From a virus, in UHGV virus genome UHGV-1775278: 13,880 nt of DNA, one strand, 5' to 3'. The position numbers were made by a program, and so were the translations under genes. Positions 534 to 13,240 of the stretch are shown here, in pieces. Every line of letters starts with the position of its first letter. Position 1 is the first letter of the stretch. The notes under the pieces are model-generated. The model saw only the letters and a program-made list of their open reading frames with translations. It ran no database searches and was not told the origin of the DNA.

Positions 534-1754
534 TTATTTCCCATAAAGATCTTCTACGCCCCCATTCTTCTTGTCCCATTCGTTAGCCCACACCCGGCAG
601 GCATCAATAATTTCTTGACGACGGTCGCCCTGCATAAAGGGGATGCTTTCATGAAAACTACTTGGGATACAGGCCACGCTGAATACGGTATCAAACGCAG
701 TCTGTTTGATAGCTTCCAACGTCTCTGGGCGCATTTTCAATTCATCGATCGGCGCATCCTTAGAGTCCATAATCCGGCGATGCAGGCGCGGGAAATCAGT
801 CTCCAGGTACGCCATAATTTTATCTGCCAGGCATTCGTCTATATCGGTATTCCAGTCCGTTTCGAAGCCGGGCAGGCGATAGTAAAGCGGCGTTCCCCAT
901 ACTGATGGGATCACATCCATCGTCAGCAGGCGGTTGGTTCTAATTTGTTGATGGTAATTAGCCGTCAACAGAGCTTCACCACGCTGACCAGTCTCCGCAA
1001 CCAGACCATGCGGGTACTCATGGATATAGGCAATAGCATCCACCCCGTCATACATGAGCGGGAATGTCTCTGGCCTTTGTCCCATACCACAAGCGCGGTT
1101 CAGATCATGACCAAGCTGTGAACACTCTCGTTTCAGCGTTTCAATAATGTTCTGCGCTGCTGCTAACTTTTTACGCAGTGTGACACCTTCGCCTTGATAC
1201 TTAATGCACTGCTGATTCAGCTCTGTTAAACGCTCTTTTAGTTCCCGACGCTCTCTTTTCAGCGCACGGTTATCCTTCTCCGCAACATCCAGTCGTTTTG
1301 ACAGGCTGGCTGGATAGTCTTTTTTGTAACGACTCAAATCGGCTTCTGCGGATTTGCGCAGTGTGTTTGCCTGTTCAAGACGCGCTTCCAGATTGCCGAT
1401 CTCACTACGCATACTCGCGGCAAATTGATTAACAGCATCGCCAAGACTTTCAACTGTCGCTGATACGCCTGTGACTCGTGAAAAACGGAGCAAGCCATCA
1501 TTAACAGCTTGTTGATATTCCTCAAACTGATCCACCAGCTTGTTGTAATCAACCGTCCCTTCCTCAAGTAGCTGGTTGATCTCCGCGACCAGGTTATCAG
1601 TCGTGGCAATGACGCTCTCATGTAACCGTCTGGACAGGTCATCCCCCGGATTCCGCTTTTGAATAAGGGCGATCTGTGTCCGCAGCGTTTCAATCGCGGC
1701 TGAGATGATTTCCAGATTAGAAGTATCAGTTTGTTGACTCATTGCAGTTCCCAT
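534..1754 (-). CDS. Hypothetical protein, N-terminal coiled-coil plus C-terminal globular domain (406 aa)
   Basis: Long uninterrupted minus-strand ORF. The N-terminal ~200 aa is charged and Leu-rich with heptad-like spacing (e.g. LEARLEQANTLRKSAEADL, RERRELKERLTELNQQ); the C-terminal ~200 aa is non-repetitive. A second in-frame ATG at 1742 has GGGA about 6 nt upstream, so the true start may be 1742. Element copy 3 and the terminator of the upstream operon lie just 5' of it. No family recognised. Confidence 0.7.
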   Translation of the reverse strand: MGTAMSQQTDTSNLEIISAAIETLRTQIALIQKRNPGDDLSRRLHESVIATTDNLVAEINQLLEEGTVDYNKLVDQFEEYQQAVNDGLLRFSRVTGVSATVESLGDAVNQFAASMRSEIGNLEARLEQANTLRKSAEADLSRYKKDYPASLSKRLDVAEKDNRALKRERRELKERLTELNQQCIKYQGEGVTLRKKLAAAQNIIETLKRECSQLGHDLNRACGMGQRPETFPLMYDGVDAIAYIHEYPHGLVAETGQRGEALLTANYHQQIRTNRLLTMDVIPSVWGTPLYYRLPGFETDWNTDIDECLADKIMAYLETDFPRLHRRIMDSKDAPIDELKMRPETLEAIKQTAFDTVFSVACIPSSFHESIPFMQGDRRQEIIDACRVWANEWDKKNGGVEDLYGK

Positions 1755-1855: not shown

Positions 1856-2155
1856 TTATTGTGTCATTGCCTGGTAGATAAAATACACGATGCATACCGG
1901 TACGATAGCCCATTGCAGCAATGAAAGCAGCCTCATGGCTGTCATTGGAGTAACTCCGTCTACGTATTCCTTCTCTGACATTTTCCCTAACCAACTAACC
2001 GACAAAAGGGTCGAGTTCTCCCCCATTTCCAGCTCCCTGAGGGCTTCCCGGATTAAAGGCGCTGTTACCACCTTGCGGGCGGTGTTGAGCGTAATGCTCC
2101 GCGTCCTCCCGGCGTCATCGGCAAACGCCAGGTTCACATGATATTTTTTGCTCAA
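1856..2155 (-). CDS. Small hypothetical protein with C-terminal hydrophobic (probable transmembrane) segment
   Basis: The ORF track gives 1856-2170, but that start has no Shine-Dalgarno. An in-frame TTG at 2155 has GGGAG 8 nt upstream and overlaps the upstream stop as TTGA. C-terminus LLSLLQWAIVPVCIVYFIYQAM is hydrophobic. No family recognised. Confidence 0.5.
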   Translation of the reverse strand: MSKKYHVNLAFADDAGRTRSITLNTARKVVTAPLIREALRELEMGENSTLLSVSWLGKMSEKEYVDGVTPMTAMRLLSLLQWAIVPVCIVYFIYQAMTQ

Positions 2156-2352
2156 TGTACAAACTCCCAATCATCAGCGCCTGTACTTTCCGGGGTAATG
2201 TGAACCTTATCACCAGTGACAATATTCCGAGCCTCTATTGTTCCATTGCTGTGTTTCAACAACTCAACACACAATGGTTGCTGCCAGGAACGACGGCGAG
2301 CAACAACGTTAGCACCAGCAGGGATAAGTTCAGCCACGTTAAGTAAACGCAA
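2152..2352 (-). CDS. Small 66-aa protein, paralog of the 11762-11959 gene; tentatively DUF2829/Tad2-like
   Basis: TTG start with GGAGA 7 nt upstream, 14 nt after the VRR-NUC stop. Shares with the other copy the layout A..G.A.V.RR..W near the N-terminus and DW(E/I)(F/V)V at the C-terminus (GANVVARRRSW ... GADDWEFVH). Family assignment is from memory of the family pattern, not a search. Confidence 0.5.
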   Translation of the reverse strand: MRLLNVAELIPAGANVVARRRSWQQPLCVELLKHSNGTIEARNIVTGDKVHITPESTGADDWEFVH

Positions 2353-2366
2353 AACGATTTCTCCGT

Positions 2367-2675
2367 TTAATCAAGACAAACATATTCCGTGATAGCTTTT
2401 ATGGCTTCAGCGGCACTGCGCGCCTCAAAGCAGTAGTAACCTGCTTCGGTGAGGCGAGTCATCCAGACGAGTTGTTCGGGAGTCAGGCGATTTCTCCCAT
2501 GTTTCATCTCAATGCGCATTCCGTGGTATCCCCCACAAGCAAGGTCTATAGAAAGATCGGGATATCCCTTCTTTTGGCCCTCTGCCACCATTTTTATTGC
2601 CGTCCTTATGCCTCGCAGACCGCCGTTTGGAGTGGCGTGTGTATGCTCATACACATAGCGCATATTGCGATACAA
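2367..2675 (-). CDS. VRR-NUC domain nuclease (PD-(D/E)xK superfamily)
   Basis: Motifs HATPNGG, KGYPDLSI, GMRIEMKHGRNRLTPEQ and a C-terminal EAGYY..EARSAAEAIKAI helix match the VRR-NUC pattern. The only canonical start is TTG at 2675, but the frame stays open to 2810 and the extra codons still look like VRR-NUC helix 1 (HYEQVRVLDWL). Confidence 0.75.
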   Translation of the reverse strand: MYRNMRYVYEHTHATPNGGLRGIRTAIKMVAEGQKKGYPDLSIDLACGGYHGMRIEMKHGRNRLTPEQLVWMTRLTEAGYYCFEARSAAEAIKAITEYVCLD

Positions 2676-2812
2676 CCAATCCAGGACGCGTACCTGCTCG
2701 TAATGCTCATGGTTCCTTTTGATTAGATCTGGGTTTTTCTCCAGTTCTCTGAGAGCTGCGGCATGTGGGGACGTTTCAGAATATTCACTGCGACGCCTTC
2801 TTTTCCTCGCTA

Positions 2813-2822
2813 TTTTCTAACA
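2813..2822 (-). promoter_or_regulatory. Copy 4 of conserved element TTTTCTAACA
   Basis: Lies at the head of the VRR-NUC operon; the TAG inside the element is the stop that opens the VRR-NUC reading frame. Confidence 0.5.
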
Positions 2823-2996
2823 CACCCATTGATAGTAAATAAGCGAAATAATAACAACTGCGTTAGATTTGTAAAACAAGAGAGATACTACTCAAGGCTG
2901 GGCTATATGCAACAGGTAGGATTTGCTTTTAGAGTAAAAAGTGACCTTAATCAACAAGGAGGGTAAATCGCATGGCATTTACCCAACTTGTTATTT

Positions 2997-3257
2997 TTAA
3001 AGGTTTATTTTATCCGGTTCGGATATTTCTGTGATTGTCTTGTCGATTGCGATCAACCACCCTTCATAGGTTAAATCATCAACAAGCTCTACCAGTTTGT
3101 CTTCTGTATGAGGGAAGTATACCCAGCTCCAGCTCGCTGGGTTTTCTGCTTTTCGCAGCGTAAAAACCTTCTTGTAACGGTGAAACTCAAGGACATACCC
3201 CTTCGATATGGAATATTCCTTTAGGTCTTCGACCGTAAACCTACGATTCTTTCGCAT
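2997..3257 (-). CDS. Hypothetical protein (86 aa)
   Basis: ATG start 2 nt after the stop of the 144-aa gene (TAGccATG) with a G-rich stretch upstream. Last gene of the operon that contains the giant gene. No family recognised. Confidence 0.5.
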   Translation of the reverse strand: MRKNRRFTVEDLKEYSISKGYVLEFHRYKKVFTLRKAENPASWSWVYFPHTEDKLVELVDDLTYEGWLIAIDKTITEISEPDKINL

Positions 3258-3259
3258 GG

Positions 3260-3694
3260 CTACCCCATGATTCGATATTTCTCTATTGACTCGTCGTAAC
3301 TTGTGTACACGTATGGCTCTGTATCATCAGCATAAGGTGCGACTTCCAGAGCATGAACGGGATTGTATACCGCGTCATTTTCCAGGCGATCGCTCGAATA
3401 CAGATGCCCAGCCAAAACCGTAAGCGCCGGGCGACTCATTTTGTAGATCTCTGCCACATCACTATCTACAACTTGTCCAAATGATATGTCGCCGCGCTCC
3501 AGCAATATCGTTTTGAGCGCGGGCCACCACGGACCATAAAGGTGATAAAGCTGTGGATTTTTCTTCAGCCTTTCTACCATGCCATCAAGATAAACTGTCA
3601 GGTATTCTTCTTCACTCCTGCCATTGAGTGCCTGCGGCAAGATTTCCTCAAGGTAGGATTCCGTCGGTTTTACAGTGTCAATTAGTGTCGTCAT
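3260..3694 (-). CDS. Hypothetical protein (144 aa), immediately downstream of the giant methyltransferase-helicase gene
   Basis: ATG at 3694 lies 36 nt after the giant ORF stop. Same strand, acidic protein, no family recognised. Confidence 0.6.
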   Translation of the reverse strand: MTTLIDTVKPTESYLEEILPQALNGRSEEEYLTVYLDGMVERLKKNPQLYHLYGPWWPALKTILLERGDISFGQVVDSDVAEIYKMSRPALTVLAGHLYSSDRLENDAVYNPVHALEVAPYADDTEPYVYTSYDESIEKYRIMG

Positions 3695-3701
3695 TCAAAT
3701 T

Positions 3702-3719
3702 CGGCCCCGGTTGGGGCCG
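3702..3719 (-). other. GC-rich hairpin (CGGCCCC ggtt GGGGCCG) between a Shine-Dalgarno sequence and the start codon of the 144-aa gene
   Basis: 7-bp perfect GC stem with 4-nt loop. On the minus strand the order is TAA (giant ORF stop), cagat, AAGGAG, hairpin, aatttga, ATG. Confidence 0.55.
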
Positions 3720-3730
3720 CTCCTTATCTG

Positions 3731-6700
3731 TTAGGCCGCATCGGCGATTATTTTACGCAGTTCATCTACCGAGTAACGCGTAGATACCATCCATGCCGGA
3801 CGGTCAAAGTTCACATCAGCAACCGGGTTTGCTTCAAAATTCCAGAAACGCCCGCCAATCTTCTTAATCGCGTCCTTGGCGTTCCGTATTGTCGAGGAAC
3901 CGGGCTGATCGGCAATGAGATAAACGGCTCCCACATCTTCACTGACACTCCACCAGCGCCCGCGAACACGGGCTTTAGCGCGAATCGGCTTATCATTAAC
4001 CACAATGATATAGTCATCATTCGCCGCTTCATCAGCTCTGGCTTCAGCCACTGCCGCCTGCTCTTCTCTTTTGCTTTCAGCCTGCTCAAGCCTTTCCGCG
4101 ATCTCTGATTCAGTGGCCCCGCCGTTTTTCAGCGATACATAGTCCTGCCACGTTGCCGATTTGAGCGCATCCGGCAACTCATTCACATAGTCGCCGTCTT
4201 TCAACTCACGGGCGCGACGGGTAGCCATTTCTACCAGGCGATTAACAGAAACAGCATCAGCAAAATCGTCCTTACTAATGTGTTTTTCATCAAATGCATT
4301 GATGACAGCCCCCACCTTAATCCACTGCGCTGCTGGCGAATCCAGAGGATTATCGGCCTGAACAATGGCTAATTTCGCTCCATCGACACCATTATTAGCC
4401 AGCTGCTCCAATGCCGACCAGCCATCGGCATCGCTGAGTGATTTATATTGCTCAAACAATGCATCGCGCCAGGCCACCAGCGCAGCTCGTGTTTTCTCAA
4501 TTTTCGCCGTAATTTTCGCGGCCTTCACCTGATTAAACATCCGTTCAATGTCATCAGTGTTGCTAAAGGCTTTCATCCTGCCCTGGAATAAACGGTATGC
4601 CACCACGGTCTTCCAGAAAGATTCCAGCCCTTCTCCGGACGGTTTACGGAACAGGCTAAGAATATCTTCAGAAGTAACTTTATTAAGTGAGCGACTGGAC
4701 AAACCACGCCCTGCCATCCAGTTTTCAAACTCCTGGGAAACATCATCCATCGTGGCCTGTGCCCCCCATGCCTGCATTCCCTGGATGTAATCATATCCAT
4801 ACAATGCCTGGAGGAATCCCTCGCCGTCCACGACATTCAGCGGGTTATCACTGGCTTGTATTTTTGCCACTTCACGCTTCAGCGCCTCATCGTTGCCATC
4901 AGGGTAAATCCACCGCTCAGGCGCTATATCCGATGCTCGCCCGATTTTTTGACCTATTACGCCATCATAAGCCGATGACAGTGCAATCTGACCATCATCG
5001 GTGCGATAAGCCCAGTATTTAATAGCTGAACCACCGCCCCATACTCTACCAGGCTTCCCGGCAGTGACATTCATTACCCCATTGCGAATAGCATCATAGA
5101 ACTGATCGCGCGTAAGTGTTGTTGATAGCTGGTGGCATTGAACACCACGTGCAGCTGTTTCACGCGATTCTGCAACTCCCTCTTCAAAGGTTACCGATTC
5201 AATTATCAGGTTAAAGGGCAAAAATAATGCCGTACCCGGAGAACGAGAGTAACGACTAGCCACATCCAGCCAGGATATGCGGCACGTACACCCGCCCCTT
5301 TCCGCATCAATGGCGGTAACACGAACAATTGCTGTCGTATTGTGATTCTCATCGATGATCGCGCGATAATGGCTGTCCTTGTGCAACAAGATATTTTTCT
5401 CAGTGCGTACATACTCCTGTGGGTTCTGCAATACATCGGCATCAAGCTCCAGAACCCCGGCTTTAATCGCACGTTCCAGATCACCACGGGAACGTTTCAT
5501 AACGGTGTCAGCGTCTTTAGCTCTGGTGATCGCAAAGCGTAGCTCCCGCACACGTTTTCTGTAGTCTCGCAACTGTTCCAGAACATATTTCTGCCCGTTC
5601 CTGTTCGTCCCCGCTTTAATCAGGTCGTCAAGATTGCGCTGGTAATGCTCTACCTGCTCCATCGCGCTTTTCAGTTCTGTCTCCATCATGCCGATATCTT
5701 TCCCGGCAGCATTCGCCGCTTTCAGGTAGTTATCGAGAGCATTATTGGCTTCGCGTAGGGCTTTCAGTTTCAGACGTTCTTCACGCTCTTGCGCCTGACG
5801 ACTCATGATTGCACGGCGTTCTTCCGGATTTGCCGCCAGCATAATGGCGCGTTCATCTGCGTCATCCGCATCACCATTGGCGATCTCTGACATGTCGGAG
5901 GTCATCACCATATTGATCCAGTCCTTCTTACGTTTCAGCGTATCCAGACGGAAGTCGTCGAATGTGCCTTTGCCACAATAGTAGTGAACATTGACCTTTT
6001 CTTGCGGTGAACCTACGCGCGCACCGCGCCCATTTCGTTGGTCGATACTGGCTGGTGTCCAGGGTAGTGTCAGGTGGTGGATATCGGTTGTCCCGATGTG
6101 CAGGTTAATACCTACTTCAGCCTTCTTGTTACAGATTATGATGCGCGTGCGACCTTCGTTATAGTCGGCGGCAATACCTTCCATGCCCTCAAGGCCAGCA
6201 TCATTTTTAGCTGAGAGATAATCCTCATATTGGGCAAGTTTGCTGTAGTAGGTTTCCCATGCACCTTCTTTGTATTCACCGTTTTTATTTGGCGTAGGTT
6301 CAGTAGGCTTATTCACCTTCTTCAGCTTGACGCCGCCAGCCTGGCTAACTGTCGTCGCATTGATAATGCCTATCTCCTGCTCCGGCATTTGCAGTGCACT
6401 GGCAATAATACGGCGCAGCTTCTGGTGCTGGGCTTTTTCATCAATGAAGACGATTTGTTTACCGTTCTTCAGACCTTCACGAAGGTTTTCGATCAGCGCG
6501 GCATACTTCGGCGGGATGGGGTGTGATACCTGCTGCATATCAATACCGGCAGCCGCAATGGCCTTCAGTATTTCAGCTTCCAGTTCAATGCCAGCACGTA
6601 TTTCAACATGCGACGGATGTTCGCTAAAGGTGGTCTTCACTACCTTGCTGGTACGCGTACTGACCAGCCCACCAGCGCCATCTTCTTCGGCCTCGTCTGC

Positions 6701-9700
6701 ATCATCTGCCACTTTACCGCCAGCTACTTTTGGCAGGGCATCAGCAATAGCTTTTACCTTGTCTGCAAGCTCAACGGGGAACTGGAATGTAATCGCACTG
6801 GCATACAGATCAGGATCTATAGCAACCTTATCCATGTCGCGGATGATGGAGAAGATGAAATCATCCGGTTTTTCGTTTGTGATATGCCCGTTTTCATCGA
6901 CCGTCAGCGCATCTTTACTACTTAACTCCTGTGCACGCTTACGAAGTTCTTCGTAAATGGCCTCTTGCTCTCCTGTCATCGGGATCTGCAAGGTATTCTC
7001 GACAATATCAGGGATTTTTACCGTCGCCCCGACGTCCGCAGCAGTCTTCAGAGTAGTCCAGCGATGGAAAATACCACGCAGACCATCCAGGTTCTGGAAG
7101 CCCACCAGCCCCTGCTTCTCTTCCACCTCACCGGAAATTTTCTGAACCTGAACTGTGGCTGTTTTACCGAACACGCGAACGAAATCATCCGGCGTAACAA
7201 TACCCATGCGCATCCACTCTTCCTGCGGAATGACAGTAGACAGCATGTTGAAAGCATCAATCGGGCTGTTCACCAGCGGTGTTGCCGTCAGCATAACCAC
7301 ACCACGCCCGTTGTTGCGTTTCATCATGTACGCAGCTTTTACAGCCATATCACGAGCCATTTTGGATACTGCCGGGTTAGGCAAATATGCCAGTTGCCCC
7401 GCTTCGCGCCCGGCGCTAAAGGAGTTGCGGTAGTTATGCCCTTCGTCGGCAATTACGCTATCGAAGTTCATATCCTCAAAGTACGGGATATTCTGCTTCT
7501 TCGTTGTACCGGTATTTGCGGCCTGGTCCTTAATCTTGTTCTTCTTCTGCGCGTCACGGTGTTTGCCAGATGCCAGGTCAAGACGCCCCATTTCCACAGC
7601 ATTAAAGACCGCTTGCTGTGAGTTTTCCTCAATGGTTTCTTCTCGTAGCGGGATAGACGCGAATTGCTCTTTTGTCATGATGACCGTTCGCCAATTTGAC
7701 GACGGGATCATGTTCATGCGCTGAACGATAACGGCGCTGGCGGACTCTTTCACAACATTTCTGGTAAGAGCCTGCCCGTTACTGTCGAGGCGTGGTTCGC
7801 CATTTTCATCAAGCACCGGCGCGGTCAGAATATTTCCGCTGTCATCACGAACTTCATCCAAACCGATAAACATCATATTAGCGAAGGCATCAGCACTGTA
7901 GAAACTCTGTGCCTCGTGATACCAGTTCTGATAAACCGCCTTCGGAACAACAATACACGTGCGTTTAGTGCGACCTGTTTCGAAGTTATACGCCTCAAGC
8001 GCAAGCGCGGTCGTGGTTTTACCCAGCCCGGTGCCAAATCCCATGATGCCGCGCCCATCTTCTGATAAGCGACGAACTTCTTCATTCTGATAAGTCAGAG
8101 GAATGCGCTTCCCACTAATCCCCTCCAGGCCAAGCGGTGCGTCAGAATGCGTAAACGGGATGAAGCCATTAAATGCGTCGTTATAGTCGCGGGCTATCTG
8201 ATCAGCCTGCGGGTGAGTGCGTAACCAGTCGTTGAAGCTAATTTCCAATTGAGCAATCTTATCCAGGTACTCGTTAGCGTTCTGCCCACGCGGTTTAATG
8301 CCGTTCAGGTAGTTTTCTAACTGGTTCAGGAAGCCGTCTTTATTGTTGGCCTTCTTGAACTCATTCCCGTTTTTGCCGTTTACGGTTCGTAGTTGATAGC
8401 CAGTAAATACCCCGTCCTTACCTTCGTAATCGTCCGGAGATACCAGAATGCCGTCCTCAACCTTAAGGTCGGGTTCTGTATACTTAAACTCGTCATAGCC
8501 CTGCTCTGCCAGGAACTCTTTTATCAAGCGGCGATCCAGCCAGCGGGCGTTCAGATTAACGGTGACTTTATTTAGTGGCGTGAAAATGCGTTTCTCTTCG
8601 ATTTTCGCCAACTGACGCTCAAAGTTCGCTTTCTGCTCACCTGTTGACGCATCACGCCAGCCCACCAGCAATGCTGTTTTGGTTGCAATATCGCCGCTGG
8701 TGGCGCGGTCCATCGGCAGCAGGCAGCCATACCCATCAATAGCGATATCATCAAATTTCGCCAGGTATTCCAGAGCAGCATCGTCGTCTCCTGGCAGTTC
8801 GCCAGCAAACGCCTCACGAAAATCGTCCAGTGTGATTGGATTAAGTGCCACGTCACTGAAAAGGTGGGTTACAACTTGTTCCGGGCGTGTAAAATCAATA
8901 CCGGCAGCACCATCCGTTACATCAAGTCGTCCAGCAAGGAGGTCAGAAGCAGAGCCGTCCTGTTTCACGTTGCCAGTGAAAGTCATCCAGTTTTTAGCGC
9001 CAGCTTCAGCAATCCCATTCAGCTTAATCGCGTGCGGCGGACCATACTTCGCAATTTCGGCTTCCGCCAGGCGCGCGGCATCAGCAAGTTCATCATCAAC
9101 ATTTTCCCCCAGATTACGCTTATCAAGCGCCTTGTTGATCAACTGCCCTATCAGTGCGCCGCGCATAACGCGTTCTCTGTCTTTTTCTCTCTGCTTGCCA
9201 GCAAAGCGAATCATTGCCGCTACTTCATCACTGATAACCGATGGATAGTCGGACGCGATCGCCGATATCTGGTCCCATGACAACGCCAGAATGCCATTTG
9301 TTGACTGAAACGCGATCTGCAGATCGCCAAACGTCGAAACACCATATCGGCTTACATCAAGCGCGGAGGATTTGGTTGTCGTGTCCTTGACCCATTTCAG
9401 GCCATCAAACTCATGCCAGATGCCGCCTACAAGGCGTTTATCGCCCACTTTCGCGCCCTGCCATGCCTGAGTAGTTACGCCGAGCAAATCCCAATTAATG
9501 CGGCTTTCAAAGCGGCGCGATAGAGCGGTTTTCATCGACTCATTGGATACACGACCGTCCTTTTTCACCACCAGGGTATTGCGGAAGCTGGTACGCTCCA
9601 TATCGCCGTAAACAAATCGCTTCCCTTCGGTTGTAAACCATTTTCCTTTGAGGAAGGTATCCCAAAGGACGTTTGCCGATTTGAGCGTCGAATCATCCGT

Positions 9701-10687
9701 ATCGGGGATCATCTCCAGAAAGGCTTCCGGGTGTTTACGCAATACCCATACGTCCACCACGGTATCTGTACCTGATTCACTGAACGTACCGGAAGGCATA
9801 CGATGCGCGCCCAAAAATTCCGCTTTACGGCTGACTTTATCGCGCAATTTTTTGTATTTCGTACCATCAGTCATGCCATTCGGCACCACCAATACGATAA
9901 GCCCACCAGGTTTAACCTTGTCGATCGTGCGCAGCACAAAGTAATTGCCAACGTTCTTCTCGTTTGCATATGCCGGATCAAGCCCTGCAACGCCGGAACG
10001 GCCTTCGCCAAACGGTACGTTACCAACAGCGTGATCATACATTGCGTCTTTCGCCGCCAGAGCCTCGAACGCCCCAATGTTCACATCGTCTTCCGGGTGC
10101 AACAGCTGGTTGATTCGACCGGAGATCGGAGACAGCTCGGCGCTGGTCATTATCATTCCCTGCCGTTTTGTCTCCTGGAAAATACCCGTGCCAGCTGATG
10201 GTTCCAGTACGTGACCGCCATCAATACCGTAGTCAGCAAACAGCTCCCATATACCTTCAGCCATAAACTGTGGTGTGTAGTATTCGTATTGACTGCCTTC
10301 GCCGTCAGTAAGGCCGCCTTCACCTGTATACCCTGCAAGAATCTGACGCTGTTCGTCAGTTAATTTCGCCCCATCGAATCCGGGCGGAAGGGAATTAAGA
10401 AGATCTACTGCGGCGTTGTTTGCTGCCCGCCGTGTTTTTTGAATGCTGACACCATCGACTTTCTTAACGCCAAAGGTCGCAACAGATCGCGGTTTATGCA
10501 ACCGACTAACAATTTCAATCAGCGCCCCAATGCTGGTGGCCTGGCTAATTGAATCAATTATTTTGTCCAAAGGAAGCCCCCTCAAAACCGTTAAATCCGC
10601 CTGTAGCGGTACGGTTTGAAAGGGTATGGAGTGTGTTAATTTGGAAGAATAAGAGCGGAAAAGGTCAGGCGATACGAACGAACTCAC
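3731..10687 (-). CDS. Giant fused N6-adenine DNA methyltransferase / SNF2-like helicase (2318 aa), DarB-like anti-restriction candidate
   Basis: Single 6.96-kb ORF. Codons verified by hand: methyltransferase motif I LEPSAGTG (10184-10207) and motif IV NVPFG (10007-10021); helicase Walker A GFGTGLGKTT (8012-8041), motif II DEGH (7436-7447), LTATP motif and motif VI QRNGRGAR (about 6017-6040). About 760 C-terminal residues have no recognised domain. GTG start with weak Shine-Dalgarno. Confidence 0.9.
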   Translation of the reverse strand: MSSFVSPDLFRSYSSKLTHSIPFQTVPLQADLTVLRGLPLDKIIDSISQATSIGALIEIVSRLHKPRSVATFGVKKVDGVSIQKTRRAANNAAVDLLNSLPPGFDGAKLTDEQRQILAGYTGEGGLTDGEGSQYEYYTPQFMAEGIWELFADYGIDGGHVLEPSAGTGIFQETKRQGMIMTSAELSPISGRINQLLHPEDDVNIGAFEALAAKDAMYDHAVGNVPFGEGRSGVAGLDPAYANEKNVGNYFVLRTIDKVKPGGLIVLVVPNGMTDGTKYKKLRDKVSRKAEFLGAHRMPSGTFSESGTDTVVDVWVLRKHPEAFLEMIPDTDDSTLKSANVLWDTFLKGKWFTTEGKRFVYGDMERTSFRNTLVVKKDGRVSNESMKTALSRRFESRINWDLLGVTTQAWQGAKVGDKRLVGGIWHEFDGLKWVKDTTTKSSALDVSRYGVSTFGDLQIAFQSTNGILALSWDQISAIASDYPSVISDEVAAMIRFAGKQREKDRERVMRGALIGQLINKALDKRNLGENVDDELADAARLAEAEIAKYGPPHAIKLNGIAEAGAKNWMTFTGNVKQDGSASDLLAGRLDVTDGAAGIDFTRPEQVVTHLFSDVALNPITLDDFREAFAGELPGDDDAALEYLAKFDDIAIDGYGCLLPMDRATSGDIATKTALLVGWRDASTGEQKANFERQLAKIEEKRIFTPLNKVTVNLNARWLDRRLIKEFLAEQGYDEFKYTEPDLKVEDGILVSPDDYEGKDGVFTGYQLRTVNGKNGNEFKKANNKDGFLNQLENYLNGIKPRGQNANEYLDKIAQLEISFNDWLRTHPQADQIARDYNDAFNGFIPFTHSDAPLGLEGISGKRIPLTYQNEEVRRLSEDGRGIMGFGTGLGKTTTALALEAYNFETGRTKRTCIVVPKAVYQNWYHEAQSFYSADAFANMMFIGLDEVRDDSGNILTAPVLDENGEPRLDSNGQALTRNVVKESASAVIVQRMNMIPSSNWRTVIMTKEQFASIPLREETIEENSQQAVFNAVEMGRLDLASGKHRDAQKKNKIKDQAANTGTTKKQNIPYFEDMNFDSVIADEGHNYRNSFSAGREAGQLAYLPNPAVSKMARDMAVKAAYMMKRNNGRGVVMLTATPLVNSPIDAFNMLSTVIPQEEWMRMGIVTPDDFVRVFGKTATVQVQKISGEVEEKQGLVGFQNLDGLRGIFHRWTTLKTAADVGATVKIPDIVENTLQIPMTGEQEAIYEELRKRAQELSSKDALTVDENGHITNEKPDDFIFSIIRDMDKVAIDPDLYASAITFQFPVELADKVKAIADALPKVAGGKVADDADEAEEDGAGGLVSTRTSKVVKTTFSEHPSHVEIRAGIELEAEILKAIAAAGIDMQQVSHPIPPKYAALIENLREGLKNGKQIVFIDEKAQHQKLRRIIASALQMPEQEIGIINATTVSQAGGVKLKKVNKPTEPTPNKNGEYKEGAWETYYSKLAQYEDYLSAKNDAGLEGMEGIAADYNEGRTRIIICNKKAEVGINLHIGTTDIHHLTLPWTPASIDQRNGRGARVGSPQEKVNVHYYCGKGTFDDFRLDTLKRKKDWINMVMTSDMSEIANGDADDADERAIMLAANPEERRAIMSRQAQEREERLKLKALREANNALDNYLKAANAAGKDIGMMETELKSAMEQVEHYQRNLDDLIKAGTNRNGQKYVLEQLRDYRKRVRELRFAITRAKDADTVMKRSRGDLERAIKAGVLELDADVLQNPQEYVRTEKNILLHKDSHYRAIIDENHNTTAIVRVTAIDAERGGCTCRISWLDVASRYSRSPGTALFLPFNLIIESVTFEEGVAESRETAARGVQCHQLSTTLTRDQFYDAIRNGVMNVTAGKPGRVWGGGSAIKYWAYRTDDGQIALSSAYDGVIGQKIGRASDIAPERWIYPDGNDEALKREVAKIQASDNPLNVVDGEGFLQALYGYDYIQGMQAWGAQATMDDVSQEFENWMAGRGLSSRSLNKVTSEDILSLFRKPSGEGLESFWKTVVAYRLFQGRMKAFSNTDDIERMFNQVKAAKITAKIEKTRAALVAWRDALFEQYKSLSDADGWSALEQLANNGVDGAKLAIVQADNPLDSPAAQWIKVGAVINAFDEKHISKDDFADAVSVNRLVEMATRRARELKDGDYVNELPDALKSATWQDYVSLKNGGATESEIAERLEQAESKREEQAAVAEARADEAANDDYIIVVNDKPIRAKARVRGRWWSVSEDVGAVYLIADQPGSSTIRNAKDAIKKIGGRFWNFEANPVADVNFDRPAWMVSTRYSVDELRKIIADAA

Positions 10688-11009
10688 CGTCTATTGCGTG
10701 TTCACCCCCGGCATCATCTCGCATAACAGCACACTGACCTGGAAGGCCATAACGAACAACCATACAACGAACACCATCGCCACAACCGCTCTGAGTCCTG
10801 TTTTGTCTCCTCTCATACGATTTTACCCGTTCAAGTGTTCGCCTTGTTGATTCGAGATAATACTGTTTGTCGATTGCATCCGTACTATGCAGCAAGTAAG
10901 CCACCCCGGACACATCAAACGGAGGCGATCCAATCTCCATTGTCACCCACTCACGGTTATCCGGTTCAAAGTAGCTGAGTATCTCTTTTTTTCTTCTTGT
11001 CAGTCTCAT
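10665..11009 (-). CDS. Hypothetical protein (114 aa) whose 3' end overlaps the giant gene start by 23 nt
   Basis: ATG at 11009 with GAGG 8 nt upstream. Sits directly downstream of the palindromic control region. The C-terminal third is low complexity, so the true extent is uncertain. Confidence 0.5.
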   Translation of the reverse strand: MRLTRRKKEILSYFEPDNREWVTMEIGSPPFDVSGVAYLLHSTDAIDKQYYLESTRRTLERVKSYERRQNRTQSGCGDGVRCMVVRYGLPGQCAVMRDDAGGEHAIDGEFVRIA

Positions 11010-11020
11010 GTTTGCAACCT

Positions 11021-11052
11021 CTTATTGTGGGATAGCTCTATCCTACAATAAG
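11021..11052. promoter_or_regulatory. 32-bp near-perfect palindrome (CTTATTGTGGGATAG ct CTATCCTACAATAAG), candidate operator
   Basis: 15-bp arms at 11021-11035 and 11038-11052 with one mismatch. Lies 12 bp upstream of the 114-aa gene start, in the divergent region between the giant-gene operon and the lysin gene. Confidence 0.6.
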
Positions 11053-11067
11053 AAACGTAACAACATT

Positions 11068-11083
11068 TATGATTTAAATCATA
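11068..11083. promoter_or_regulatory. 16-bp perfect palindrome TATGATTTAAATCATA, candidate operator
   Basis: Exact self-complementary 16-mer in the same divergent intergenic region, 16 bp from the 32-bp palindrome. Confidence 0.5.
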
Positions 11084-11243
11084 TGGTTAATTAATGAGAA
11101 AGCTCAAACATTCAGTATACGGTTAACACTCAACATGCCACGGACAAGGAAGGCTTAGGGGCGTACCGGGGTAAGAAAATTGCTGCCATGAAAATCACAT
11201 ACTCCCCATAGTTTATGTTCATTTGTTAATCAGAGGGGTAGTT

Positions 11244-11729
11244 ATGGTAAGTTCCGATCCTCGTTGGCTGATGGAAGCCCGTAAACATATTGGCCTGACC
11301 GAAATCAAAGGGGCTAAACACAATCCTGAAATCGTCCAGTTCTGGCGGGATATTAAACGCGGTGGGATTAAAGACGATGAAACTCCGTGGTGCGCAGCAT
11401 TTGTTGGCGCAATGTTAGAGCGTGTGGGTATCCGCTCAACAAGATTTGAGTCGGCAAAATCCTATCTGGATTGGGGCGAGAAACTGGATACACCAGCATA
11501 CGGATGTATCGTTGTATTTACCCGCGTAGGCGGTGGGCATGTAGGCTTCGTCGTCGGACGCCGCGCCAATGGCGATCTGCTTGTCCTTGGTGGGAATCAG
11601 GGGGATGCGGTGAATATTCGCGCATTCCCGACATCAAGAGTGTCGGGCTATCGCTGGCCTGCTGGCGAACCACGCAATACAGCTCTGTTACCAGTCGGAG
11701 ACGCAGCAACCTCAACCAATGAGGCATGA
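11244..11729 (+). CDS. Papain-like Cys/His hydrolase (CHAP / NlpC-P60-like, TIGR02594-type), candidate endolysin
   Basis: ATG at 11244 has GAGGGG 5 nt upstream; the ORF-track start at 11223 is a TTG with no Shine-Dalgarno. Candidate catalytic Cys in ETPWCAAFVGA and His in GGGHVGFVVG, spaced as in CHAP-type amidases. Only plus-strand gene in the window. Confidence 0.75.
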   Translation: MVSSDPRWLMEARKHIGLTEIKGAKHNPEIVQFWRDIKRGGIKDDETPWCAAFVGAMLERVGIRSTRFESAKSYLDWGEKLDTPAYGCIVVFTRVGGGHVGFVVGRRANGDLLVLGGNQGDAVNIRAFPTSRVSGYRWPAGEPRNTALLPVGDAATSTNEA

Positions 11730-11759
11730 AAAAAGCCCCGGCCAGGCCGGGGCATCACG
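11729..11759 (-). terminator. Intrinsic terminator for the minus-strand Rha operon (GC hairpin GCCCCGGCC a GGCCGGGGC followed by T-run on the minus strand)
   Basis: Perfect 9-bp arms at 11735-11753. The minus-strand reading is hairpin then TTTTTT. On the plus strand the hairpin follows the lysin stop but has no T-run. Confidence 0.7.
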
Positions 11760-11761
11760 CT

Positions 11762-11959
11762 TCAAGTCACGATCCAATCATTACCGACTATATCAGCCGT
11801 CGCTAAATCAACTTCCCGGATCTGGAGTCCATTAATACAAAACCACCCGGTAGTAGAGCAATTATCAGGCCAGGCCCATACACCAACACTCCATGCTTTA
11901 CGGCGGCACACTTCAGCCTGTCCTTCGCTGATTTTTTTTACCGCCTGCATGATGTCCAT
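11762..11959 (-). CDS. Small 65-aa protein, paralog of the 2152-2352 gene; tentatively DUF2829/Tad2-like
   Basis: ATG at 11959 has GGGGAGG 6 nt upstream and overlaps the Rha stop (TGATG). Carries the shared motifs GQAEVCRRKAW ... IVGNDWIVT. Last gene before the terminator. Confidence 0.55.
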   Translation of the reverse strand: MDIMQAVKKISEGQAEVCRRKAWSVGVWAWPDNCSTTGWFCINGLQIREVDLATADIVGNDWIVT

Positions 11960-12666
11960 CACTCACCTCCCCAACCGATCACCTGGAATTGCCCCATTTT
12001 GGGGTGATACCAGCGTTTTCCTCGGTGTTCAGCCTCAGACATCATCCGGTTAAAGGCATTCATAAAGGGAGATAAGGCCACAATAGAACGACGCGACAAT
12101 ACCCCCTCTGGCGTTAAAAACTCATGCGTATCGGTGGGGATACGGTAAGCATTGACCAGGTTACGGCATTTGGCTTCAGTCAGGCCGCATTTCGCCGCTA
12201 ACTGGCGGTAGCCAATGTAACCATCTGGCATGTTACCCTTCTTGATTTGCTCGACGGTTTCTACCACCTGGCTAACCTTTGACTCAACAACATGAAGCCG
12301 CTTTTGCTGCTGAACTGCATTTGCAGCCATTGCGGCGATCATCTCTATTTCGGTCAACGGCTGGCGTACTTGTTCTTCCAGTTCGCGCCAGCGGTCCACC
12401 AGCCGGGCGGTGAATTCCGGAGAGAGCTGCGCAACGACAATAATGCTGTCTCGTTTGCCTTGCTCGCCTTCGAAGACGTAAGCCTCGACACTACGGCGTA
12501 GTCCTAAGTTATTGATTTTTTCGAAAACCTGCAATGCAGGAAGTTGAATAACTCCAGATTTAGCCAGGCGCTCTATTGATATTTTTACGTTATCTGGACG
12601 ACTTCCCACCAGCTCCGCGATCTCAATGCTGGTCATTGATGGCTTTTCAAGAATGCAGATATCCAT
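11959..12666 (-). CDS. Rha-family phage regulatory protein (antirepressor-like)
   Basis: N-terminal MTSIEIAELVGSRPDNVKISIERL matches the Rha-family start pattern. Preferred start is the ATG at 12666 (GGAGG 7 nt upstream, ATGA overlap with the upstream ORF stop); the ORF-track start at 12711 has no Shine-Dalgarno. Confidence 0.8.
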   Translation of the reverse strand: MDICILEKPSMTSIEIAELVGSRPDNVKISIERLAKSGVIQLPALQVFEKINNLGLRRSVEAYVFEGEQGKRDSIIVVAQLSPEFTARLVDRWRELEEQVRQPLTEIEMIAAMAANAVQQQKRLHVVESKVSQVVETVEQIKKGNMPDGYIGYRQLAAKCGLTEAKCRNLVNAYRIPTDTHEFLTPEGVLSRRSIVALSPFMNAFNRMMSEAEHRGKRWYHPKMGQFQVIGWGGE

Positions 12667-13088
12667 CAGTGTGCCTCCGCAATTCCGGGATTGGTAATAT
12701 TGCGATACCAAGGATTAGTGTTTGGTTGTGATGAAGTAGAGAAACGGCCAGTCAGGACGCCATGTTGATCAGGGATCAGAGAACGGGCTTCTTTTTCAGT
12801 TGCGGCAATTGCGAAGTGATCACAGTGTTTTTGCAGGGAGTGGAAACGCCAGATAAATTCCGGGCGCGAGCAAGGATTGGCATTAACCATAGTTACGGCC
12901 TCATTCGTAGGTTTAACAACCTGCGCCCCGCTGCTAAACGGGTGGCAGGACGTGACGGGGTTAGCAGACTGGCACGAATGAAACCAGCAGGCCGAAGCCT
13001 CCCCATCACGCCCCACCATAATTCGGGCGTAACGTGGTTTTACGGACACAAAAATACCGCAATATCGGATATCTGCGGTTGTCCGCAT
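12666..13088 (-). CDS. Hypothetical Cys/His-rich protein (140 aa), uncertain
   Basis: Open frame between element copy 5 and the Rha gene, ending in an ATGA overlap with the Rha start. Six Cys and several His (CWFHSC, SCHPF, HCDHF). No convincing Shine-Dalgarno at either candidate ATG, so it could instead be a long 5' leader. Confidence 0.35.
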   Translation of the reverse strand: MRTTADIRYCGIFVSVKPRYARIMVGRDGEASACWFHSCQSANPVTSCHPFSSGAQVVKPTNEAVTMVNANPCSRPEFIWRFHSLQKHCDHFAIAATEKEARSLIPDQHGVLTGRFSTSSQPNTNPWYRNITNPGIAEAH

Positions 13089-13240
13089 TCGTATTCAGGC
13101 TGCTAAACCCGGTCGCAGAATTTGCTACGACGACATGAATATAAGCCTGAAAACATGGAAGATCAACTAAAAATTTCAGCAATGGATGACTTCAGTCGAT
13201 GATGCAGATCATACATTCCGATTTAGAAACAGCAAATTAA

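Follow-up and report, generated by a model that had tools for sequence, protein, structure and literature searches.

Two small, probably paralogous proteins of a D6-like phage-plasmid resemble a minimal, pocket-divergent form of the Tad2-like fold

The viral DNA analysed here (virus genome UHGV-1775278; 13,880 nucleotides, referred to throughout as the window) belongs by megablast to the D6 group of P1-family Escherichia coli phage-plasmids, and it contains two small genes, orfA and orfB, whose products are best described as a minimal, pocket-divergent form of the known Tad2-like fold. Comparisons of sequence profiles indicate that the two are probably distant paralogues of each other and that orfB is likely homologous to Tad2 at the superfamily level, with orfA linked to Tad2 indirectly, through the orfB family (hhalign 81-84%). 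The genes are conserved, efficiently initiated and translationally coupled, and the canonical ligand pocket of Tad2 is lost. Both are annotated only as hypothetical (in D6 and RefSeq) and as members of PHROGs of unknown function, and we found no paper describing orfA, orfB or the fusion of an orfB-type domain to the antirepressor Ant that is described below.

Sequence features of orfA and orfB

The two genes and their ribosome binding sites, the latter read from the sequence, are as follows.

2352-2152, minus strand: orfA (D6 orf11, phrog_7206), coding sequence of 66 amino acids (aa), TTG start
2364-2361, minus strand: orfA Shine-Dalgarno sequence GGAG, 8 nucleotides (nt) 5' of the TTG
11959-11762, minus strand: orfB (D6 orf17, phrog_7385), coding sequence of 65 aa, ATG start
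11970-11966, minus strand: orfB Shine-Dalgarno sequence GGAGG, 6 nt 5' of the ATG

An initial annotation of this DNA had described two paralogous 66-aa proteins with strong Shine-Dalgarno sequences, an RR..W motif near the N-terminus and a DW motif at the C-terminus. Its coordinates are confirmed, with the addition that both open reading frames (ORFs) lie on the minus strand, which it did not give, and its Shine-Dalgarno sequences are those listed above. Paralogy is supported by profile scores above those of shuffled controls; the length is correct for orfA, and orfB is one residue shorter. The motifs are real and occupy the same positions in the two proteins, with RRRSW in orfA and RRKAW in orfB at residues 19-23, and DWEFV and DWIVT respectively at residues 61-65.

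Relationship of orfA and orfB to each other

Pairwise comparison detects the N-terminal part of this similarity. BLASTP aligns only the N-terminal 23 residues of orfA and orfB, and a Smith-Waterman score of 37 against 22.3 +/- 4.2 for shuffled sequences (p about 0.007) likewise covers the N-terminal 23 aa only; hhalign comparisons with shallow profiles are in register and not significant. K-mer homologue searches and tblastn against phages recovered only near-identical D6-like copies, and direct Pfam, NCBIfam and PDB sequence searches (phmmer in the case of PDB) yielded nothing usable for either protein; a DUF1233 match to orfB (E 0.047) is taken as noise.

An exhaustive phmmer search with orfB against 1.84e9 representative proteins identifies more distant relatives. 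P0130 (E 1e-8), a Rha-family protein of 313 aa, ends in the orfB domain (its last 57 residues). The domain stands alone in P0131 (68 aa, E 1.3e-6) and in P0133 (96 aa, E 7.7e-5), both of which match the PHROG of orfB itself at about 4e-10. P0129 (PKD repeats) and P0132 (LRR/AAA) were rejected as repeat-driven false positives. Pattern scans of genomes and metagenomes added no further diversity to the family, the single Nitrospirota match covering 28 residues and being ignored.

The orfA profile aligns with the enlarged orfB-family profile over nearly its full length (residues 1-63 with 4-66, 61 columns; hhalign 80.7%, E 1.3e-5, score 29.8), and also with a profile of three distant orfB-family members that contains no window sequence (hhalign 83.6%). 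Column shuffles of the orfA alignment (n=400) score 10.6 +/- 2.2 against the orfB family with a maximum of 19.5 (z about 8.7), and the reversed alignment scores 13.3, such that the two proteins align better than shuffled controls. Among 1083 six-frame ORFs of a near-identical plasmid, a hidden Markov model (HMM) of the orfB family ranks orfB, the element's second Ant (see below) and then orfA (E 0.02, full length), and an orfA HMM gives its two highest scores, self-match aside, to orfB and to the orfB-like domain of that second Ant. Both proteins also have a C-terminal (T/S/A)-P-(E/N)-x motif at identical spacing to the terminal DW. Together with the profile scores, this suggests that orfA and orfB are probably distant paralogues.

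Relationship to the Tad2-like family

Family PF11195, Tad2-like (Thoeris anti-defence 2-like), was formerly DUF2829 and has a Pfam gathering threshold of 25 bits. The free-standing orfB relative P0133 matches profile positions 2-71 of 73 with E 6.2e-5 and 23.9 bits, and P0131 gives E 0.076 and 14 bits. The reference Tad2 proteins are SPO1 gp34.65 (8SME, 8WJE), HgmTad2/AcrIIA7 (8KBI), SptTad2 (8WJD) and ModTad2 (8V3E, 9EIB), and sequences of solved Tad2 structures were retrieved from PDB with a consensus query (E 1e-15 to 1e-17). Against these the enlarged orfB-family profile aligns end to end over 63 columns (hhalign 93.7%, E 1.9e-7, score 39.0), rising to 94.2% (E 1.2e-7) when the element's own two PF11195 domains are added; the three distant orfB-family members alone give 85.5%. 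The highest score among 400 column shuffles is 19.1, compared with 39.0 observed, and a reversed control scores 8.5. By these alignments orfB is likely a homologue of Tad2 at the superfamily level. For orfA, hhalign gives 64.5% against a merged profile and 50.9% against the 191-aa PF11195 domain of the same element.

Tad2 and the two window proteins are all small and phage-encoded, with a similar order of predicted secondary structure. Common to them, at equal spacing, are the pattern G-x-x-V-x-R-x-x-W in a predicted N-terminal helix and x-D-x4-DW-x-(I/V) in a predicted C-terminal strand. The putative minimal branch itself has an N-terminal helix ending in G-x5-RR-x2-W, four short strands, and a C-terminal (T/S/A)-P-x-(D/S)-x4-DW-hydrophobic strand, with the spacing of Tad2. 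An AlphaFold2 (AF2) model of orfA from a six-sequence alignment (mean predicted local distance difference test, pLDDT, 80.4) has a short N-terminal helix and strands at residues 15-20, 27-33, 39-43 and 62-65. The order of elements (helix, beta1-beta4, short helix, beta5) is that of Tad2 (alpha1, beta1-beta5) without helix alpha2. In BFVD the model matches best a Pectobacterium phage CBB protein of 66 aa that is annotated as DUF2829 domain-containing, although the match is weak (E 0.013, TM-score 0.36).

Fusion to an antirepressor and canonical Tad2-like proteins of the same element

The orfB-type domain also occurs as part of an antirepressor. D6-like elements carry a second icd-ant module outside the window (D6 orf83/orf82; L100 3075-4231), and the Ant that it encodes (D6 orf82; NZ_CP116989 12446-13441, minus strand) has a C-terminal orfB-type domain. 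The Ant portion of the fused form, seen both in P0130 and in the second Ant, is 63% identical to the Ant encoded in the window. A tblastn search detects the domain in 124 plasmids; in 102 of them it is at least 80% identical to the fused form, and the majority carry a fused as well as a free copy. Downstream of icd and a C4 RNA, the orfB-type domain is tied, physically or translationally, to a Rha-type Ant, as seen in the fused forms, in the overlap of ant with orfB (TGATG) and in the Rfam matches for C4 and its a1/b1 sites, and orfB and the Rha-type antirepressor stand in a fission or fusion relationship.

The free relatives P0131 and P0133 come from D6-related elements (of Raoultella, among others), where they occupy an accessory slot near a PAAR/parM block with no ant gene nearby. 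The slot (P0133 at L052 5001-5291, P0131 at L055 5001-5207) is located between a plus-strand gene of 116-152 aa and the block formed by a 153-aa gene, PAAR and parM; in NZ_CP116989 (86594-86748) it is unoccupied.

Two bona fide PF11195 proteins are encoded in the same element, outside the window, with the domain C-terminal in both.

NZ_CP116989 24773-25450, minus strand: WP_001061874, 225 aa, beside dut; PF11195 at 80 bits
NZ_CP116989 33086-33661, minus strand: WP_171763672, 191 aa, D6 orf6; PF11195 at 38.7 bits

These share a genome and probably a superfamily with orfA and orfB, but are longer and score above the Pfam threshold. Six pocket residues are retained in the 225-aa protein (W, N, G, W, S and D, in the pattern W-N-G ... 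W-x-x-S-x-x-D), and the 191-aa protein carries RRASWPKG, a W-P-x-G variant (RRxSWPxG) typical of the orfB family. A 'Tad2 AcrIIA7' gene has been reported in 93% of D6-like phage-plasmids (2025 preprint, 10.1101/2025.09.12.675607); this is most probably the 225-aa gene, since neither window protein matches the Tad2 models tried.

Departures from canonical Tad2

Several observations weigh against placing orfA and orfB in the Tad2-like family, or against their acting as sponges of the canonical kind. HMMER comparison with Pfam DUF2829, the check proposed in the initial annotation, gives no PF11195 match for either protein even at E <= 10. With an in-house Tad2 HMM, in which long HgmTad2-like sequences predominate, the scores are -0.2 bits for orfA and 3.3 bits for orfB, within the range of shuffled sequences, and direct hhalign comparison of orfA with Tad2 gives 4-25%. 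Of the DUF2829/Tad2 resemblance noted in the initial annotation, what survives is the superfamily-level match of orfB and the indirect link of orfA, but not a direct match to PF11195. Among the top PDB fold matches of the orfA model there is no Tad2 chain, only generic small barrels being returned, and the orfB model, made from two sequences, is unusable (pLDDT 46.5); the structure predictions would seem neither to confirm nor to exclude the Tad2 assignment.

The ligand pocket is a further departure. HgmTad2 contacts glyco-cyclic ADP-ribose (gcADPR) through W21, N22, G23, W87, S90, T92 and D93 (10.1101/2023.11.15.567273), and when these residues are mapped through the hhalign alignments orfB retains two of the seven, W and D (W23, S24, a gap, V50, A53, A55, D56), and orfA only the W (W23, Q24, no counterpart, V50, T53, E55, S56). 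W87, S90 and T92 are kept in neither protein and D93 is also lost in orfA; in place of the Tad2 motif WNGKG the orfB family has W-(S/P)-x-G, and orfA has WQQP. The beta2-beta3 insertion containing helix alpha2 is missing too, with about 8 residues remaining in orfB (PDNCSTTG) and about 5 in orfA (KHSNG); the two proteins are about 65 aa long compared with 89-104 aa for Tad2. In Tad2 this insertion makes a V-shaped dimer (10.1101/2023.05.01.538930) that assembles into a homotetramer, and in long forms it also forms the cyclic-dinucleotide pocket. Only about 1% of Tad2 proteins are estimated to be without a functional gcADPR site (10.1101/2023.05.01.538930), so the two proteins are atypical, and an exact gcADPR sponge function appears unlikely for either. 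Tad2 clades have switched ligands, however, among gcADPR, cyclic dinucleotides and histidine-ADP-ribose (His-ADPR) (10.1101/2023.05.01.538930, 10.1101/2023.11.15.567273, 10.1101/2024.01.03.573942), ModTad2 having changed to His-ADPR (10.1101/2024.01.03.573942).

The wider genome adds two points on the same side. The initial annotation had suggested that two diverged copies might be two sponge-type anti-defence proteins, possibly with different ligands, and the element already has two canonical members elsewhere; and the fusion of the orfB domain to an antirepressor suggests a role inside the immunity switch.

The operons of orfA and orfB

The surroundings of orfA are as follows.

2875-2848, minus strand: sigma-70-like promoter candidate upstream of the VRR-NUC gene (TTTACA-16-TG-TATTAT, 10/12 matches; consensus match only)
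2367-2675, minus strand: VRR-NUC nuclease gene (pmgM-like), first in the orfA operon (Pfam PF08774, E 6e-5; RefSeq/D6 annotation)
2369-2367, minus strand: TAA stop codon of the VRR-NUC gene
1856-2155, minus strand: pmgR-like gene, TTG start (record annotation)
1849-1824, minus strand: intrinsic terminator-like hairpin and T-run 3' of the pmgR-like gene

The promoter-like site and the terminator bracket the three genes, which we consider an operon in the order VRR-NUC, orfA, pmgR-like. The orfA start is 14 nt from the VRR-NUC stop, and the orfA stop and the TTG with which the pmgR-like gene begins overlap by 4 nt (TTGA), an arrangement that implies translational coupling. The orfA reading frame is uninterrupted in 26 related viral contigs, among which the ratio of nonsynonymous to synonymous polymorphism (pN/pS) is 0.26 at pS 0.37, and the gene is clearly under purifying selection.

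The second gene, orfB, lies in a P1-like immI operon.

13166-13138, minus strand: promoter-like site of immI
13092-13144, minus strand: a1/b1 target sites of the C4 RNA (Rfam RF03163, 52.2 bits)
12938-13023, minus strand: C4 antisense RNA gene of immI (Rfam RF01695, 71.9 bits)
12666-12890, minus strand: icd-like cell-division inhibitor gene of immI (annotation)
11959-12666, minus strand: Rha-type antirepressor gene ant of immI (annotation, Pfam)
11753-11735, minus strand: strong intrinsic terminator directly 3' of orfB, an 8-bp all-GC hairpin followed by TTTTTT

The ant stop codon and the orfB ATG overlap as TGATG with one A in common, which implies coupled translation of the two genes, and the hairpin and T-run that follow orfB make it the last gene of immI (C4 RNA, icd, ant, orfB). 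The initial annotation, which had the two genes as the penultimate and last of different operons, is thus borne out, orfA being the middle gene of three. The GC-rich hairpin stands between orfB and a convergent CHAP gene and may terminate transcription both ways.

As in the immI region of P1 (c4 RNA, icd, ant1/ant2), a C4 RNA and its a1/b1 targets are accompanied by icd and then by an antirepressor gene and a terminator. The D6-like region differs in that its antirepressor is of the Rha/Roi type and not P1 Ant, in the presence of the additional Tad2-like gene orfB, and in that these elements own a second icd-ant module with the fused domain. We considered whether orfB is a leftover of the P1 Ant1 C-terminus and rejected this, there being no similarity.

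All 21 viral-contig matches that span orfB in full, a 22nd running off its contig, have an uninterrupted reading frame, as do 16 metagenome variants; orfA and orfB are mostly found on one contig, about 9 kb apart. Truncated or frameshifted variants also exist (P0007, P0008 and P0134). For orfB the pN/pS is 0.67 at pS 0.064, a divergence too low for the ratio to be informative. Among near-identical orfB alleles, five different residues occur at position 45 (L, R, H, C, Y; window 11825-11827) and three at position 34 (C, Y, S), and codon 53 is a further site of this kind. Residue 45 maps to the beta3-beta4 hairpin beside the canonical Tad2 pocket; there may be a hotspot of diversification here, in line with the pN/pS of 0.67.

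Other features of the window

Escherichia phage D6 matches the window at 91.8% identity across 96% of its length, and the E. coli plasmid NZ_CP116989 at 99.8% identity across 100%; 103 plasmids cover at least 80% of it (all by megablast). Gene order was taken from the annotation of matching records (RefSeq, D6) and from Pfam. All listed genes are on the minus strand with the sole exception of the CHAP hydrolase gene.

534-1754, minus strand: pmgS-like gene (record annotation)
3260-3694, minus strand: ulx-like gene, the second of two small genes, the other encoding 86 aa (annotation)
3731 to about 10570-10687, minus strand: DarB-like giant methyltransferase/SNF2-helicase ORF, 2279-2318 aa depending on the start codon chosen
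10665-11009, minus strand: 114-aa ORF upstream of darB, hypothetical in RefSeq, no Pfam match
11223-11729, plus strand: CHAP/TIGR02594 peptidoglycan hydrolase gene, convergent with orfB (Pfam/annotation)
window end, minus strand: start of repL, beyond the C4 RNA and its targets (annotation)

The Dar anti-restriction block (darB, the ulx-like gene and the 86-aa gene) is directly upstream of the orfA operon. The 114-aa ORF sits in a stretch with no D6 alignment, the D6 match being in two pieces. In some D6-like plasmids the match to the window is split into three and overlies an IS200/IS605 TnpB gene, which points to an insertion hotspot somewhere in this region.

Discussion

The explanation we prefer, at a little short of even confidence, is a composite one, in which orfA and orfB are real distant paralogues that form a minimal Tad2-like branch and sequester a non-canonical nucleotide signal. 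Within the Tad2-like (DUF2829, PF11195) fold superfamily they would represent a divergent branch with proteins of about 65 aa, known to date solely from D6-related phage-plasmids of the Enterobacteriaceae. The immI operon of P1 is derepressed at once upon infection or induction. Because immI is under C1/C4 control and is derepressed in this way, orfB would be made early together with Ant, an expectation drawn from operon anatomy, and orfA would be co-translated within its operon with the VRR-NUC and pmgR-like genes. As small, oligomeric proteins, both would bind and sequester an immune signal of the host that is nucleotide-derived but not the one recognised by canonical Tad2; in this role they would complement the element's two canonical DUF2829 proteins and its Dar anti-restriction system. 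Taken by itself, sequestration of such a signal by both proteins is doubtful; the fold of orfB is putative, as are the oligomeric state, ligand binding and any anti-defence effect of the two proteins.

The main rival, in itself rather unlikely, is that orfB, instead of being an immune-signal sponge, derives from the C-terminus of the Rha-type Ant as a module that has become separate. It would associate with Ant and serve oligomerisation, C1 binding or regulation of antirepression, with the Tad2-like fold as a mere scaffold, and orfA would be a further diverged copy co-opted elsewhere. The fused domain in P0130, D6 orf82 and NZ_CP116989 behind a 63% identical Ant, its prevalence (102/124 plasmids), the coupled start of orfB at the ant stop and the unconserved ligand pocket all favour this, as does a weak match of orfB to the C-terminus of the Ant PHROG phrog_63 (E 0.007). 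However, P0131 and P0133 occupy another accessory locus, far from ant and with their own upstream intergenic space, phage anti-defence domains are commonly fused to unrelated proteins such that fusion is no proof of shared function, and we know of no documented antirepression role for any Tad2-like domain. The Tad2 resemblance of orfA, and less probably that of orfB, could instead be convergent or due to chance, with orfA being an SH3/Sm/Tudor-like small beta-barrel that acts as a partner or inhibitor of VRR-NUC or in P1-type 'pmg' morphogenesis. The generic barrels returned by PDB fold searches and the lack of a Pfam match are consistent with this, as are the close coupling of orfA to both of its neighbours and its direct profile score against Tad2 (16.9), which is no higher than about the 99th percentile of the null from shuffled orfA and orfB-family comparisons. 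The full-length, in-register match of orfA to the orfB family far above shuffles argues against it, together with the reciprocal best ranks among the 1083 ORFs, the (T/A/S)-P-E-x common to both proteins at the same distance from the terminal DW, and a BFVD top match of equal length that is a DUF2829 protein. We regard convergence as unlikely, and the narrower proposition that orfA is an unrelated small barrel functionally tied to the VRR-NUC or pmgR genes as fairly so.

It is very improbable that one or both ORFs are decaying, functionless remnants, for example that orfB is a fragment of a split Ant::Tad2-like fusion. The orfB pN/pS and the truncated or frameshifted variants could be read in this way, but that ratio is calculated at too low a pS to inform, orfB is intact in every full-length copy and metagenome variant noted above and retains a strong Shine-Dalgarno sequence, a coupled start and a dedicated terminator, and orfA is under purifying selection. 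We give similarly little credence to the Tad2-like domain having been repurposed from sponge to sensor, in which case, with Ant (fused or as orfB), it would bind an immune or stress nucleotide and gate antirepression, and orfA would link the VRR-NUC operon to a comparable input; if this were true, the phage-plasmid would read host defence signalling to time its exit from lysogeny.

Returning to the preferred explanation of a minimal Tad2-like branch, if the homology holds then a single element encodes the Tad2-like domain five times (twice in canonical proteins, twice in minimal free-standing ones and once fused to an antirepressor). These would offer a natural series for studying the minimal size of the sponge fold, the diversification of its ligand pocket and its wiring into the lysis-lysogeny switch, and screens that depend on HMM thresholds (Pfam, DefenseFinder) would be missing diverged members located in early operons. 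Clinical E. coli, Shigella and Salmonella commonly carry phage-plasmids of the D6-like and P1-like kinds, in which the canonical 'Tad2/AcrIIA7' gene is the sole such gene noted to date. Every functional statement made here is one that we infer, and the biology is plausible in a clinically common element.

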